Shown: positions 3,040-63,061, numbered from the whole stretch's first letter. The stretch is 63,061 nt of DNA, filler included, from Globobulimina sp. (GCA_003354225.1; 21 parts of 21 records of this genome joined end to end with filler, not necessarily neighbours in it); one strand, 5' to 3'. The notes: generated by a model not told the origin, from the letters alone. Numbers and translations are program-made.

Positions 3040-5229
3040 ATGTCGTCGCACAAAGAAGAAGAACTGTTGAAAAAGATACAATTATTACACAATAATATAC
3101 ATTTTAAAAAGGTATATTTTCATATGTTAAACAAATTTAAAAATGCATTTTTGTGCTATTGAGGATGGCTATATGGCAATGTCTATAAATAAACTACCAA
3201 TTCTAAGAGGTAGTTTATTTGTGGACACTGCCATGTGATAATGTTGTTGTTACACTGCGCAATTAATTGTAATCAATTTTAATTATGCAGTGTATATATA
3301 TTCCATTAGCGTTAATTAATATCGGATTTATTCCTCGTATTAATTCAATGACCAATTACTTTACTAATAGCTCAAAAATACATTTTTAAACTTTGTAACT
3401 CACTAATTATCATTTTGTATTGTGTCATTTGTGTGCAATTTACCAACTCACTAATATATATATATAACAAAACAAACAAAAAGAATCAATTAAATATAAC
3501 GATTCAACATATTGAGCAGAATTGTACCGATATGCATCAACATTATAGAAATATGTGCAGTGCGTTGCATACTTCCTGGAAATATAAATGTGATCAATTA
3601 CAAAAAGATAACGATAAAATCAAACAACATTTAAAAACATTAATCTCTGCACAAAGCAAACCAACAAACCGAAAAACGTCCGATGCGCAAACAAAGGAAA
3701 CATCGCAAACATACTCAGAACATATCCAACATGTTATTAACCCGCAAAATCCACCAAATAAAAACAGTAATAACAAACAACAAAACGAAGACAAACCTGA
3801 TATTATAACTAAAAAAAAGAAAAAGAAAAAAAAGAAATCTAAAAAACAGAAACCTGAGAAAAAAGAAAATATGGACGATTTACGTACAACGTTGACTGAT
3901 ATATCTAAAGTATTCAAATTGTTTGAAGATAAAATCGGAAAGAAACCAAGCAATTTTATGCAATTTTTTAACTTTATAAAACAAGAAAATCTTAACCATA
4001 AATATGCGACAGTCAAAAAATGGTGGGAGCAGAACCCAGATAATCAGACCAATGACACACCGAAAGTTTTAACAAACAAAATAAATAAATCAGAAATAAA
4101 AAAGCCGCCACCAATCAAAAGAACGAGGAGTAAACGTAAAAACTGTGAATTGTTATTATTTAATCGTAACAGATTCGTAAAAAAATTAAAAAACGAAATA
4201 AAAATATACAAATTAATATTGGCTAATTATAGAGATGCGATCTTTAATGAAAACAATACGAAATTTATTAGTAAATTGACATCAAAATATGCATTGTTTT
4301 TGAATAAATTGGTACGATTAAAGGATGAGAAGAGCGTTAATATTTACTTGGAAGCCAATGGTAAGTCATTGCATTGTGATGTGGCGTTATTGTGGCGGAT
4401 ACATTTAATTAATCCGTTTTTATATAACAAACATTGTAACACGTTATTTGGTTTTGTATTGTGTCCAAAATACGAATATATCAATTTCAGTCAAGAAAAT
4501 ACTAAATCTACGAAACGTAAACACAAACACAAAAAGAAGCCGTTGTTAATTAAAAAAATATTAAATGGCATCAATTTTGACAATCAGATCAAATCATACT
4601 TACTTTTTATGGATAAAATATTAAAATTATATGAAAATGATATTATTACCAAAGATATTATAAAAGATTATGAGAAATATATTCAATTTCTTGAGAAAAC
4701 TGTTTTTGTTAACTCGGATCATGAGGAATATATTGAAAAATACAATGACTGTGCCAGGTTTGAACGAATTTTGAGTCTATCTCAGTTTGTGCCAGGTTTG
4801 AACGAATCATTTTTATGGTATACACATATATTATTTCCAAACATATTTTTAAATGAAATTGATCATAAAATGAGAAATCAATTTGAAATTTATCAATATA
4901 AATTTATGGATTTGAATCATATTATAATTCAAAATAAAGATAAAACAAAGGAGATCTGGGATAAAATGAAAGATAAAAATATTGCAATTGACGATAAACA
5001 TCAGATTTTGGCAACATTGTATAGCCAGCACCATAATGAATTGTTAATATATGGATTTGTTGATGGTATTATCAAAGATGTTAATGATGGAGAAGTTGAA
5101 TATATTGTTCCAGTGGTTGTTGTAGATAAAATTATTATATTTTATGAGGATAATGCTTCAATGTTTGCAGAATCCAATCAATATCGTTTTCGAATGAATA
5201 GGATAAGTCGATGGAGGCAGTGTTTCTAA
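3040..5229 (+). CDS. GRDP-like (DUF1399-type) protein with coiled-coil and Lys-rich N-terminus; exons 3040-3111 and 3484-5229
   Basis: DVALLWRIHLINPFLYNKHC..LFG and a second FLWYTHILFP motif resemble the paired GRDP W.xH.L.P motifs; ATG exon splices in frame (AAG|GTATAT..AAAG|AAT). Confidence 0.6.
3171..3236. repeat. Intronic imperfect hairpin with ~26-bp arms; second hairpin at 3251-3294
   Basis: atggcaatgtctataaataaactacc / ggtagtttatttgtggacactgccat. Confidence 0.8.
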
Positions 5230-6020
5230 AAATTGTATAAAATGACATAAAAATGATTGTTAACGTTTATTGTAAAATATACTCATAAAAATGAAACGAC
5301 CATGCACGTGGAAACGACATGCGGTTTTTTACCGTGGACCACTATCCTATACTAAATTAGCTCATGCAATAGTTGTGTCCACAGTGCTTTGTTTTGGGAT
5401 TAATCGACGCTGTTTGGGATATATACATGCAGTATTCATCCAAAAAATATAATATAGTTCTAGGGATTTTGTTAACATATTCTTATTCAATGAATTATGT
5501 ACATTTGTGAAGATCAAAATAATTTATGGGTGCAAAAATCCCTAATGAGACGTTGGTTTCTGTAAATACACGTGCTGCCGGTAAATATCAGTAGTTCCTA
5601 TTCGATTCTTAACATTTTTATTCCTTCAGGTTGTTCGGAGTTCAGAATTTTTTAAGTGTTTTGAACATAATAAACACGGCACTGCATGGTCGCATGGAGT
5701 TTTAATTACACATTAGATATTAACTCATAAATACTGTGAAACAACATGATTATGAAAGTATTATTACTGTACAAATGGACGACGACATTGAACACAAATG
5801 CGATTCGTGTATTTCGTTTCTAGAAAAAGATTCATTGCACGGTTGGCTATACGGCGATGATAATGATTGCAAATCGAATCAAAAAGTGATTAAAAAGAAA
5901 ATAAAATATAAGATTAACTTNNNNNNNNNNNNNNNNNNNNNNNNNNNNNNNNNNNNNNNNNNNNTTAATTAATTAANNNNNNNNNNNNNNNNNNNNNNNN
6001 NNNNNNNNNNNNNNNNNNNN

Positions 6021-7883
6021 AAAGAGAATGGATTGTCTTTGTTGCCATCACATTTGTAAAAATGCTACTAATTCCAACATACCATAGCACAGATTTTGAA
6101 GTGCATCGAAATTGGTTAGCAATCACACATTCATTACCTTTGGATGAATGGTATATCGATGAAACATCCGTATGGACATTAGATTATCCCCCACTCTTTG
6201 CATGGTTTGAAAGCTTTTTAGCTTATTTTGCCGCTTTTATTGATCCCCAAATGGTTGTATTAACAAATCTAAATTATGCATCGTTTGAAACTATTTTGTT
6301 TCAAAGATGTACTGTTATCATATCTGATTTGCTGTTACTTTATGCAATAAGAAGGTACATTTACTACATTACGTTACGAAATGATGTGCGCATTTTAGTT
6401 GAATTTCCGATGCATTAATTTAACTAAAATGTGCATAGTCAGCTGAGAGCTCAATATTTTAAAATGAATCGTGTCTTCAGATATACATACACGTGGCCAG
6501 CGGATAGAGACTTTGGTAGATTCATGTTTGAATCATGGAGTCAACGGAAGATGGTCGCAATATTAATATTAACTTTTTTAAATGCTGGATTATTATTTGT
6601 TGACCATATCCACTTCCAATACAATGGTATGTTAATTGCAATTTATTTGCTATCCATAGCATCAATTCGCGATCGTGAACCTCGTGGCGCTGCATTCTAT
6701 TATGCAATCTTATTAAATATGAAACATATTTTCATTTATGTAGCTCCCTTATATTTTATCTATTTACTATCCTCATATGTTTTTGCGGAGAAACTCGGCC
6801 AATCATTTTGGTCCTGGGAAGAGTTTACAATCTCTTATCGTAACAAAAGATATATATTGCGGTGGACCCATTTATTCTCGCTGGCATTTGTTGTGTTAAC
6901 ACCTTTCATTGTGGCATTTGGCCCATTCATTGCGTTCGGACAAATTATAAATTTATTCAACAGGTTATTCCCTTTTGGTAGAGGTCTTACGCACGCTTAT
7001 TGGGCACCGAATGTGTGGGCATTGTATAATTTTGTTGATATCATATTAACGAAATTCAAATCTGCAAAATCCAGTCAAGGTGAAGTAGTATATAACTATA
7101 TGTTGATTAGCTGCCTCAGCGCAGCATTCTGCTGGATTGATTTATGAATTTTGCCTAAAATGCTTCCAATGATGCAATTTTATGCAAAATTATTCTAGCA
7201 AGTTAGTCAACATATTGTTGTATGTATGCATGTATGCAGTGACTCGAGGGTTGGTTGGCGAGTATGTGACATCAACATTGCCAGCCGTGTCACCAATGCA
7301 TTGTTTTGTGTTGACATTATGTTTTATGTTACCGGTACTATATAATGTGTGGAAGAGACCAAATCGCAAAACATTTTTGCCAGCTTCGTTATATGTAATG
7401 ATGTGTTCATTTATGACCGGCTATCATGTGCATGAAAAGGCGATATTAATGATAACTGTGCCTCTTTGTTTAATTAGTTTGGATTCAACGACACACGCAC
7501 AGTTTTCATTTATTTTTAATATCATTGCGAATTGTTCACTGTTGCCGTTATTACCCAATATGCAAGAAACACCAATCAAAATTGTGTTGTTGCTCATTCA
7601 TTCGCTGGTTTTATATCTTGTTTTGAATACTGAATTGAAAGTATATCAAAATGCAAATAATATTATTGAATTGGGATTGAATATAAGTAAAATGCAATGG
7701 TTGTATGTATCGGGATTTATATTTATTCAATTATTTTACAGTATAATTCAACCATTGTTTTTACCCAAATGGCAATTTCTACCATTGATGTTGTTCAGTG
7801 TTTACGGTGCATTTGGATGTTTATATTGTTGGTGGAAATGTTATACTCTCTTCTTTGAGACAATGAACATTATACGTAACTAA
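6021..7883 (+). CDS. ALG8: Dolichyl-PP-Glc1Man9GlcNAc2 alpha-1,3-glucosyltransferase; introns 6355-6480 and 7080-7239; 5' partial
   Basis: [61 protein letters not shown]; both GT-AG introns restore the frame. Confidence 0.95.
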
Positions 7884-59996: not shown

Positions 59997-60301
59997 TAGT
60001 TTTTTTTCAAAATTTTTCTCATTTTTTTTTTTCTATTTTTTTTTTATATATATTTCNNNNNNNNNNNNNNNNNNNNNNNNNNNNNNNNNNNNNNNNNNNN
60101 TTAATTAATTAANNNNNNNNNNNNNNNNNNNNNNNNNNNNNNNNNNNNNNNNNNNNTACACGTGTATACACGTGCTAAAATTGGATGTGTATACACGTAA
60201 TAAAATACAAAAAATTGTGAAAAACAAATAAAAAGGCAATAATTACAAAAACATTTATAAAAATTATTTCCCAGTATAACTACTTAGGCCATGCTTATTC
60301 C

Positions 60302-60390
60302 TACCTGAATCAGGTTTCGGTCCATTATTGTCTAGACCTGATACAGAACCTGGAGCAGGGGGACCAGTCATCAGTAGACAACCTGCCAGG
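60302..60390 (-). ncRNA. Putative hammerhead ribozyme with non-canonical strand order
   Basis: CUGAUGA, GAAA and GUC core with perfect stem I (UUGUCUA/UAGACAA), stem II (GGUCC/GGACC) and stem III (AUCAGG/CCUGAU). Confidence 0.72.
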
Positions 60391-60848
60391 CTACTTATCT
60401 TATAACAAAAAGTATAAAAAAGAACCAAAACTAGTTAATTTTTGAGCTAGATTCTACTCTTAAAAAACTTGGAAAAGATAAAAGTTACGTTAAAAAAATA
60501 ATGAACCTTTACTTTGTGTTTTTATATAAAATATAAATGCAATCAAATGTAAGCAAAAAAATCAAATTAACCTCAATATCCGTCGTTACCTCATCCTCTT
60601 CATCTCCAGTTTCTCTAGGACGCTTGCTGGAATGTGACATATTTAATTCAAAACCATGCAAGATGCCGTCACCGTCTAATTTGAAAAGAATGAAAAATAA
60701 TTTTAGAAAAAAATTTTTTGCGAGAAAAATGGCGTGGTGCGTGTACAAATGTCTACTTTACGCTATCGATTTATGATATGCGCCACGACGCAATATAGAT
60801 CTGTAGAAACTTTAATTACTTAAACCATTGAGGTTATACACTAATTTT

Positions 60849-60934
60849 ATAAGACCACTGACCGAAGCCAGTAATAAGACCACTGACCGAAGTCAGTAAT
60901 AAGACCACTGACAGAAGTCAGTAATAAGACCACT
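60849..60934 (-). repeat. 25-bp tandem repeat, 3.4 copies, each forming a tetraloop hairpin on the element sense strand
   Basis: Minus-strand cores ACUGAC-UUCU-GUCAGU, ACUGAC-UUCG-GUCAGU, ACUGGC-UUCG-GUCAGU. Confidence 0.9.
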
Positions 60935-61083
60935 TTGAATGTATTTTATATATTTAAATAAGCATGTAAAATTGTTAGATGTTTGTTTTCAGGCATATTT
61001 ACTGCCTAAGGTTTTTTCTCCTCAGTGCACGTGCATAAATGCTATTTTACGCTATGCAATTTATCCACGACCCTGAAATTATA

Positions 61084-63061
61084 TTATCCAATTTGTGAGA
61101 TACAAAAGTTTGAAATTTTTTGCTTATTATCAAGCTTGAATTTAAGCAATAATGAGCTATATATGGCAGCGAATTTATAGAATGTGTAATACAGACTAGG
61201 TTTACTGTATCCATTATTTAATAATGTATGTACTAACTGTCCTATTCTTGGGGCAAAATCATTAAAGTTATTACAGATTCTGGCAATCCTGATTAATTGA
61301 GTATAGAATACTTTGTATCCCATTGCTGTATGTACATTACTCTGGGCAAAACCATATCTGACCACAAAAAAGTTGAAATCGTCTGTTTTATTGTAGACTG
61401 CTATTCTGTGCTTACCCGGACATATGTTGACCATGATGTCCAGGAAACAACTTTCATATTTTGATTTTCCTGTGTTTTCAAGTGGTAGACAGCTCGGGTA
61501 TATTAATTTTGCATATTCTAAAAAATTTTCAGAATTTATGGAAAGTATATCATCTATGTATCGCATTGTGTGACTAATTGTTCTAGCTATGTTTATGTTA
61601 TTAATATTGGTGAGAAACTCGTATTCCAACATACTCAATACAAGATCTGCAATTAGAGGACTAGCATTACCACCCATGGGTATGCCACATATTTGTTTGA
61701 AGATAAAACCAGCAAACTTAACATATGTCTCATTTATTATGTTGTCTATTAAAATTTTGGTCTCATCTTTATCCAAGCATGCTACATATTTACCTTTAGC
61801 TTGGTCAGCATAATAAACATTATTATATGTAACAACAACATATCTTTTGTTGGCATGTCCAAATAACATATCTATTAGTTTGAAAAGTTGCTTTTTAATA
61901 ATTTCATGTGGGAACATTGTATATAATGAACTGAAATCCGCAGTGCAAATGCTGTGTAAATTATTAGATTGTATTTTATGTTCTATACGTCTATGTGCCT
62001 CCAGACTCCCTTTAATTGACCAGTAACAATTATATCCTTTTCTTTTACTAACTGTGCTACAATATTTTTCAAAATGTTGTTGAAAATGGATTAAAATTCT
62101 ATGCAATATTTTTGACATTGGTTTAGTTGATGAATTACGCGCCCCCGCAATAAAGCGAAATTTATATGGGTTTTTGTGAAGTTTGGGTGTTGCAAATATA
62201 ACTGGCAAATTTTCATCTTCACTGTCAAATTTAATCAGTCCAGTTTGTGCGGTGAGGGTTTTATGTTTATCAATAAGTGTAGTTTCGTTAATAATACATG
62301 GTTTATAAACATCATTGCCAGTGACAGTACATAACCCATTGGAATCCATACTTACACCAAGTTCTTTACACATAATTTCCATGTAGTATTTTTTACATAT
62401 AAAAATGAAATTGTTGCTTGCTTTGTCAGCAGGTGCAATAATGAATTCTTTCTGGATATGTTGTAGCACCCTCATACTTGCTTTATCAGATAAACATGAC
62501 ATCTTCTCTGTATTTGGTATATTGACTGATAAAAATCTTATTCTGTTATCCACAATTTTTGAATATAAACTTTGATAATCTTTTAGCATATCAGAGATAT
62601 CAACATGTCTTCGGATTCTTGAGAAAGTTTTGTTGACATATTCTGTGGCTGCTACCATTGCTACTTCTCTAACTTCATTCCAGTCAAATGCTTTAGGTTC
62701 CCGAAACTTGGCACCCTTTCCAAAAAGATTTCTAAGTTTTGCATCTTTAATAATATTTAGATCACCAGTGATAACATGACCACAATGTCCATAGACAAAT
62801 CGTGAGGTTGAACATTCACATTGTTTATAAACTATATTATACAATTCATTACTCTGCAATTTGTTAAGTGTTTTATTGTAATTAAACAATTTACGACTAA
62901 TCGGAGGTTCATATTTATAAGTGATAATGGGTAACTCAGGTTTTTTATTATCAATAGAAACTATTTTTTGTAACCTTCTGTCTTTAAAAATGGTTTCAAG
63001 TTTAAGTAATTCAATACCCTTGTTTGGATATCCAGCCACAACAATGATACCCTTACGTTTG
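61084..63061 (-). mobile_element. Penelope-like retroelement, Naiad/Chlamys type (CxC linker + C-terminal RT); 5' truncated
   Basis: CEC..S.F.Y..CGHVITGDL linker, PADKA, PKLHK.P..FRFI, DFSSLYT, GIPMG...SPLIADL, RYIDD, FLD; ORF ends after the thumb with no C-terminal GIY-YIG. Confidence 0.88.

Follow-up and report, generated by a model that had tools for sequence, protein, structure and literature searches.

A Type-CSG Hammerhead Ribozyme Probably Encoded in the 3′ Non-coding Part of a Penelope-like Element with an N-terminal Endonuclease

Introduction

Canonical type I hammerhead ribozymes were reportedly described by Cervera and de la Peña in 2014 in the pseudo-long terminal repeats (pLTRs) of Penelope-like elements (PLEs), and Lünse et al. 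are said to have shown in 2017 that the minimal hammerheads of PLEs act as dimers. Here we analyse a 63,061-nucleotide stretch of DNA recorded as Globobulimina sp. (GCA_003354225.1), referred to throughout as the window, which carries a hammerhead motif on its minus strand at 60392–60304, downstream of a PLE reverse transcriptase (RT) open reading frame (ORF). Judged from its sequence, this segment very probably encodes a permuted hammerhead of the kind known as type CSG, situated in the 3′ non-coding part of a PLE with an N-terminal endonuclease.

Two bodies of work bear most closely on this locus. In the accessible text of Craig et al. 2021 (PMC8557442), canonical type I hammerheads are placed in the pLTRs of the PLEs Penelope/Poseidon, Neptune, Nematis, Hydra, Athena, and Coprina. 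The N-terminal-endonuclease PLEs (Naiad/Chlamys), marked there by a CxC motif and by DKA, are described as clades that lack canonical hammerheads, and the Methods mention eight "HHR_half_core" cases in which 35–50 nt separate the two core halves on either side. Eckert et al. 2023 (PMC10085705), in the portions available to us, treat the hammerhead as three blocks, C (CUGAnGA), S (the cleavage site), and G (GAAA), describe non-circular permutations of these blocks, and assume that the junction between A9 and G10.1 cannot be interrupted. Their type SGC, or HRIMA-1 motif, is common in metatranscriptomes and has a linker of typically 3 nt. Type CSG is represented in that text by two similar sequences from metagenomic DNA only, with no organism or gene context; the corresponding RNAs, CSG-1 and CSG-2, cleave in vitro at the expected site as single short transcripts, with kobs values of 0.004 and 0.026 per min. 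Within the same portions, "Penelope" occurs once, in the reference list only, and retroelements likewise. In the literature that we searched, which did not extend to subscription-only papers, nothing was found that links permuted hammerheads to PLEs, and the link between type-CSG hammerheads and N-terminal-endonuclease PLEs appears to be new.

Results

The motif in the window contains all of the core nucleotides, namely C3 U4 G5 A6 N7 G8 A9, G12 A13 A14, an A15.1–U16.1 pair, and an H17 that is not G, together with perfect stems I (7 bp), II (5 bp), and III (6 bp) in which 18 of 18 pairs are Watson–Crick. Read 5′ to 3′, the CUGAUGA strand comes first, followed by the cleavage site and then by GAAA. 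The parts, in this order along the minus strand, are the following.

60382..60390, minus strand: helix P0, 5′ strand; 9 of 9 pairs are standard, and the CUGAUGA block becomes a hairpin loop
60375..60381, minus strand: stem I 3′ strand (positions 2.7–2.1); seven Watson–Crick pairs with 60328–60334
60368..60374, minus strand: catalytic core C3–A9, CUGAUGA; from the sequence and the descriptor
60366..60367, minus strand: two extra nucleotides between A9 and G10.1; from the descriptor (insert = 2)
60361..60365, minus strand: stem II 5′ strand (10.1–10.5); pairs with 60323–60319
60349..60359, minus strand: helix P0, 3′ strand; pairing segments 60359–60356 and 60353–60349, with a 2-nt bulge at 60355–60354
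60337..60347, minus strand: stem III 5′ strand; core of 6 bp at 60337–60342, possible extension to 60347
60336 and 60335, minus strand: U16.1 and C17 of the GUC cleavage triplet; predicted cut 3′ of 60335, i.e., 60335/60334
60328..60334, minus strand: stem I 5′ strand (1.1–1.7); pairs with 60381–60375
60324..60327, minus strand: linker joining the distal ends of stems I and II; 3–4 nt in the window
60319..60323 and 60315..60318, minus strand: stem II 3′ strand, then GAAA (G12-A13-A14-A15.1); from the sequence and the descriptor
60304..60314, minus strand: stem III 3′ strand; core at 60309–60314, possible extension to 60304

One further G–U pair is possible in stem I, and stem III could gain 3–4 more pairs beyond a U–U mismatch, reaching 60347/60304. 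An earlier, sequence-only reading had proposed this ribozyme, and its structural account holds up well: the minus-strand string it gave agrees with the sequence letter for letter, all of the pairs it listed for a complete core and perfect stems of 7, 5, and 6 bp are Watson–Crick, and the pair map bears out its description of two hairpins, closed by P0 and by stem III, that meet loop to loop. The descriptor places the predicted scissile bond at the same position, 60335/60334 (U16.1 at 60336, C17 at 60335), and the C-S-G order confirms its statement that the strands are not a circular permutation of types I–III. That reading erred in calling the topology new-looking, because Eckert et al. 2023 had already named it type CSG, with two examples that cleave (accessible text, PMC10085705). 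The window topology is this described type, non-circularly permuted and doubly pseudoknotted: it shows the C-S-G order, a 2-nt insert between A9 and G10.1, an extra helix P0 (9 bp plus a bulge), and a short linker.

A descriptor that accepts the hammerhead strands in any order, applied to the window in both orientations, finds exactly one match even when the stems are relaxed to 4/3/3, and no further copies of the element or the motif were found within it. The relaxed search of 20 Mb of random sequence with matched composition gives 447 matches, the best of them, a single one, with 17 stem pairs against 19 in the window motif, and in 64 Mb the final descriptor gives 11 type-CSG matches, none with more than 15 pairs. 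The motif could in principle be a functionless chance match to the hammerhead consensus. Random counts roughly halve with each extra pair, and extrapolation places a match of this quality, in some strand order, about once per 50–100 Mb, a frequency at which scans of very many windows meet some. Since a single motif of this kind could turn up by chance in a large genome, what decides the matter is recurrence in related elements. Searches with Rfam 15 are of little help here: nothing in the window reaches the gathering threshold, 60157–60600 gives 0 hammerhead matches at E up to 10, and 15 motif-bearing loci give 0 at E up to 1, as is to be expected, crossing helices of this kind being beyond what a covariance model can represent.

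To collect related elements we used an RT-based profile (alignment A1, of relatives at 32–36% identity that have GIY-YIG and, some of them, UCH/USP domains), which fetched 39 loci, 33 of them metagenome contigs and six contigs of metagenome-assembled genomes (MAGs; L034–L039); the same alignment returned 0 loci from viral contigs. A unified descriptor was then run on both strands of the 39 loci and the whole window, 208,572 nt in all. Every match lies on the RT-sense strand, and the antisense strand gives 0. The type-CSG motif, with 0–2 nt between A9 and G10.1, is present in L001, L002, L021, L034, and L035, where the stem sequences differ and the motif lies 551–1046 nt 3′ of the ORF stop (705 nt in the window; 412–1046 nt over all motif loci). 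A sixth relative, L036, has the type-CSG order at 4934–5040 with a 30-nt insert between A9 and G10.1. The insert is made up of two hairpins, the second of which abuts G10.1 and partly repeats the stem I sequence. Among the relatives the length of the insert is 0, 1, or 30 nt, and one diverged contig of the source sequencing run (X1) that covers the window motif has small indels, one of which deletes 2 letters at 60366, in the insert itself. In a maximum-likelihood (ML) tree of 24 long ORFs, the window falls with L001, L002, L034, and L035 in one clade (SH-aLRT 91), and L036 is sister to it (93); L003, L017, L019, L021–L030, L032, L033, and L038, whose ORFs are short or broken, are outside the tree, among them the motif-bearing L021.

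The 64-Mb random control predicts only ∼0.04 type-CSG matches per strand in 208,572 nt, and ∼0.2 matches of the split form described below. Set against this, the recurrence in six related loci, at the same relative place and on the same strand, with different stems and with features beyond those that the descriptor demands, leaves practically no room for chance, which for practical purposes is already refuted. A further control, run without the core requirement, yielded helix triples in the type-CSG arrangement on both strands, 105 of them sense and 83 antisense; CUGANGA occurred in only three of them, all sense, and 6/7 core positions in none. The scanner used for this control rejects overlapping stems and misses L001. 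The sequence-only reading had suggested looking for homologues near related RTs with a descriptor in this strand order and inspecting them for covariation, and it had surmised that the motif is a "missing ribozyme" overlooked by standard descriptors. The search near the 39 RT loci (five CSG matches with fully different stems plus L036, antisense 0) and the 3–6 pair types per stem position among 16 descriptor-selected copies, counted from core-anchored positions, both speak for that surmise.

A relaxed scan of the loci that have no motif yielded three weak sense matches with very long spacers, which we judged to be chance, and one of the loci, L023, whose contig is short, offers no fitting partners for either of its two CUGANGA sites. 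The five MAGs behind L034–L039 were searched for more RT copies and gave only short contigs without 3′ regions and no new motifs. The contigs L034–L039 are of eukaryotic retroelement type, yet they are binned in MAGs assigned to Flavobacteriales, Maribacter, Omnitrophota, Halanaerobiales, the PVC group, and Gammaproteobacteria, which is probably mis-binning; one of these sets, MAG G003, has 10 RT matches.

Conservation was counted over 16 distinct copies, seven CSG-like and nine of the split form (L037 repeats L009, and L039 repeats L005). Because MAFFT alignments of the motif regions (A3, A4) misplace helices, pairs were counted by script from core-anchored positions. CUGANGA, GAAA, and U-H are invariant in 16/16, as the descriptor required. 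Position 7 varies (U in 9, A in 4, G in 2, C in 1), and the cleavage site is GUC in 7/7 CSG-like copies. Stem positions I 1–4, II 1–5, and III 1–3 are paired in all 16 copies, each with 3–6 pair types, except for G10.1–C11.1, which is G–C in 16/16 without the descriptor demanding it. A G–C pair at this position is a known hammerhead preference. The linker from stem I to stem II measures 0–5 nt in 16/16, and an equivalent of helix P0, with 6–15 bp, lies 0–7 nt from the stem I 3′ strand and the stem II 5′ strand in 18/18 motif-bearing sequences; in 12 of the 18, its length is reached by ≤4% of shuffles.

Conservation of this sort might also be expected of a structured 3′ RNA, for example a pseudoknot used by the RT/endonuclease for template selection, which would be hammerhead-like in form and have no useful rate of self-cleavage. 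Conservation of all four helices and the constant position of the motif in the element's 3′ region would both suit such an RNA, as would the slow in vitro rates of the type-CSG RNAs (PMC10085705, accessible text). The available text of a study on a canonical PLE (PMC11167929) points the same way: the hammerhead needed protein to cleave, and hammerhead mutants were without effect on insertion in vitro. However, all of the catalytic nucleotides (C3–A9 except N7, G12–A14, A15.1–U16.1, and H17) and G10.1–C11.1 are kept in 16/16 copies while the helices change, a retention for which a protein-binding fold has no known need, and two type-CSG RNAs do cleave (PMC10085705, in the part available). We regard a non-cleaving structural RNA as an unlikely account of the motif.

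Sequence and comparison together show the folding scheme. Helix P0 holds out the stem I 3′ strand, CUGAUGA, and the stem II 5′ strand as a hairpin loop, and the long stem III does the same for GUC, the stem I 5′ strand, the 3–4 nt linker, the stem II 3′ strand, and GAAA as a second loop. Pairing between the two loops creates stems I and II and with them the standard three-helix catalytic core. The RNA would be expected to cut itself 3′ of C60335, leaving a 2′,3′-cyclic phosphate on the ORF-bearing fragment and a 5′-OH on the downstream one. The ribozyme might in this way trim read-through transcripts to unit length, as proposed for canonical PLE hammerheads, a role to which the arrangement of the related elements lends itself since they occur in head-to-tail/pLTR arrays with one motif per unit. 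Positions 1–780 of L035 match 5276–6050 at 93% (a head-to-tail/pLTR repeat), positions 1–98 of L036 equal 5008–5105 and start 8 nt before its cleavage site, and L006 and L009 have terminal overlaps; each of these four tandem/pLTR contigs has one motif per unit. L014 has a motif copy upstream of its ORF.

This arrangement raises the question of whether the RNA acts only between molecules or tandem copies, with the CUGAUGA hairpin of one copy docking on the site/GAAA hairpin of another in the manner of canonical PLE dimers. Such an arrangement would draw on the two halves being separate hairpins that meet only by loop–loop pairing, on the tandem organization of the relatives, and on the dimeric action that Lünse et al. 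2017 reportedly found for PLE minimal hammerheads. Against it, the hairpins are 1–2 nt apart on one strand. In the available portions of Eckert et al. (PMC10085705), moreover, helix P0 and a short stem I/II linker are tied to folding in cis, and CSG-1 and CSG-2 cleaved as single short transcripts. Action exclusively between copies therefore strikes us as very improbable.

Several observations weigh against a type-CSG ribozyme in the window and have to be set beside the evidence for it. In the nested minimum-free-energy (MFE) fold of the segment (−32.4 kcal/mol, z −1.79) the cleavage site is tied up with the stem II 3′ strand, and a rough summed estimate puts the stability of this fold close to that of the ribozyme fold. 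The 2-nt insert between A9 and G10.1 is the upper limit among known hammerheads, and the published type-CSG rates are slow (PMC10085705, accessible text). The covariation counts come from sequences selected by the descriptor and not from an independent alignment, the false-positive rate of the descriptor having been measured on the 64 Mb of random sequence. The motif is absent from 22 of the 39 related loci; most of these have <500 nt of 3′ flank, but seven (L003, L012, L016, L022, L028, L030, and L031) have ≥600 nt by ORF calls, so the motif is not shown to be universal. Finally, the role in the life cycle is uncertain, because the hammerhead of a canonical PLE is dispensable for insertion in vitro and reads ending at its cut site were not seen (PMC11167929, in the text available).

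In the nested MFE fold the cleavage-site region pairs with the stem II 3′ strand as an alternative hairpin, 60340–60319 on the minus strand, an equivalent of which was not seen by eye in L034, the one relative inspected. This hairpin may be an off-state or an accident.

The element that carries the motif is represented in the window by one long ORF, which is open at the window edge.

61084..63060, minus strand: RT ORF, 658 aa, open at the window edge; its stop lies ∼0.7 kb 5′ of the ribozyme motif

The match of this ORF to Pfam RVT_1 is a weak one, scoring 19.6 bits where the cutoff is 29.6, and the ORF is 37–40% identical to the ORFs of L001 and L034–L036. It has an upstream CxC motif and DKA (changed from DKG), both of which are invariant columns in alignments A1 and A2. 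In L034–L036, its closest full-length relatives (37–39% identity), a GIY-YIG domain lies N-terminal to the RT, at residues ∼110–235 (28–30 bits against a cutoff of 22.6); the window ORF ends at the window edge before this region. The features that tell Naiad from Chlamys are Zn-finger-like CCHH and upstream Cys motifs in the endonuclease, and by eye columns of Cys and His can be made out in that region of the relatives. The premise of the sequence-only reading that Naiad/Chlamys elements were reported without canonical hammerheads is what the accessible text of Craig et al. 2021 states (PMC8557442). Taken with the occurrence of the motif, this suggests that at least one clade of PLEs reported as hammerhead-less carries a single ribozyme motif in each unit, concealed by its topology. 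The core halves are 49 nt apart in the window and 46–58 nt apart in the other CSG copies.

The source run X1 contains many diverged copies of the element (94 contigs at 80–100% likeness), and near-identical pieces of it occur in a marine metagenome. No contig of run X1 spans 60867–61089 at full identity, and the linkage of RT and ribozyme is not independently confirmed in this organism; RT and motif are joined on independent contigs of relatives. One run X1 contig joins 60391 to 60900, skipping 508 nt, with a shorter side of only 21 letters. The joint coincides exactly with the 5′ edge of helix P0, a hint that some element copies have a different or shorter 3′ untranslated region. The 3′ non-coding regions of CSG-bearing elements also show internal tandem duplications, at L001:2510–3075 (283 nt), L002:3461–3594 (∼64 nt), and L021:957–1252 (∼124 nt).

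Related elements outside this clade carry the same blocks in a different arrangement. This split form is present in 11 loci, nine of them distinct (L005, L006, L009, L011, L014, L015, L024, L025, L026, L037, and L039), and its parts run in the order stem II 5′ strand, P0, site block, a linker of 2–5 nt, GAAA block, P0, stem I 3′ strand, CUGANGA. The stem II 5′ strand is thus not joined to A9, and the chain is open between A9 and G10.1; a hairpin of 6–10 bp ends 0–2 nt before G10.1 in 11/11 loci. All four helices vary in sequence and keep their pairing. The split form has the cyclic order of types CSG and SGC, opened inside block C, and we found no description of such a permutation in the literature searched, with subscription-only papers again outside it. 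When a stem II 5′ strand was sought downstream of the core in these loci, the only candidates were inconsistent and rich in G–U pairs, and they were rejected.

The split form is spread over four other RT clades in the ML tree, and on this ground, with the tree rooted at its midpoint, it may represent the older state. To judge from its sequence, L036, whose insert between A9 and G10.1 bears hairpins, looks like a connecting form. Somewhat better than even, in our estimate, are the prospects of a broader proposal, in which non-circularly permuted hammerheads are the "missing" ribozymes of the whole superclade of N-terminal-endonuclease PLEs, with a further split permutation in the sister lineages and L036 as a connecting form.

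Some PLE ORFs among the relatives have a C-terminal UCH/USP domain (PF00443) after the RT, namely those of L005 (24–4055, 93 bits), L004, L007, L010, and P0001–P0016, with lengths of 1176–1355 aa. A deubiquitinase-bearing PLE may be undescribed, since "ubiquitin" is absent from the text of Craig et al. 2021. In L006, positions 347–487, which lie upstream of the PLE ORF, match Metazoa_SRP, an SRP/Alu-like RNA (SRP, signal recognition particle), at 42 bits against a gathering threshold of 70 (E 1.8e-7), and this segment may be an SRP-derived short interspersed nuclear element.

The neighbouring genes in the window are cellular and eukaryotic (kinesin, CD36, a DDB1/CPSF1-like protein, ATG2, and PI3K), and the DNA is gene-dense and AT-rich. 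Paired 44-nt runs of N recur every ∼3 kb (e.g., 60057–60100 and 60113–60156; 1760 N in total), resembling masking and not biology; several ORFs are interrupted by them, and the stretch immediately 3′ of the element is hidden.

Discussion

Before this work, type CSG was the least supported of the validated hammerhead permutations, with two similar sequences, modest covariation, and no host or role. The present finding places it in a defined genetic element and adds diverse copies whose stems and additional helix vary in sequence but remain paired, one of them in an assembled eukaryotic genome and open to testing. The eight "half-core" cases of Craig et al. can now be checked directly.

The split variant would have wider consequences. 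Should the split RNAs cleave, the assumption that the blocks are uninterruptible fails and more than six permutations exist. On the same condition, the tandem arrays of retroelements would also be a natural route to such permutations. An active split variant, together with the L036 intermediate, would widen the design space of the hammerhead and give a concrete evolutionary path between permutations.

Comparison with Known Systems

With the canonical hammerheads of PLEs, the window motif shares the catalytic core and the kind of host element, and its relatives also share the presence of one motif per repeat unit in non-coding/pLTR sequence. The canonical ribozymes differ in being nested three-way junctions, often minimal dimers, that are found by standard descriptors and Rfam, whereas the window motif is pseudoknotted and invisible to Rfam 15.

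The host element resembles Naiad/Chlamys, as these are described in the accessible text of Craig et al., in the CxC and DKA of the window ORF, in the N-terminal GIY-YIG of the relatives, and in the lack of a canonical hammerhead. It differs from them in its host, which looks like an AT-rich, gene-dense, intron-poor marine eukaryote and neither an animal nor a green alga, and in the C-terminal UCH/USP domain of some relatives, "ubiquitin" occurring 0 times in the text of PMC8557442.

Type SGC/HRIMA-1, to judge from the available portions of Eckert et al., has the same cyclic block order and four helices, and the split variant likewise runs from site to GAAA to CUGANGA. Unlike the PLE motifs, HRIMA-1 comes from metatranscriptomes, beside hairpin ribozymes, and has its stem II 5′ strand immediately following CUGANGA; the 11 split loci instead have this strand upstream of the site block, preceded by a hairpin.

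The closest relative is type CSG itself. The C-S-G order, the full core, stems I–III formed as two pseudoknots, a P0-like helix that ties the far sides of stems I and II to each other, the short link between stems I and II, and an origin in DNA are common to the published examples, as far as the accessible text describes them, and to the window motif. CSG-1 and CSG-2 were compared by description only and may or may not belong to the same family as the window motif. The published type consists of two similar sequences, whereas here there are six diverse copies and L036, all inside PLEs and one of them in an assembled eukaryotic genome.
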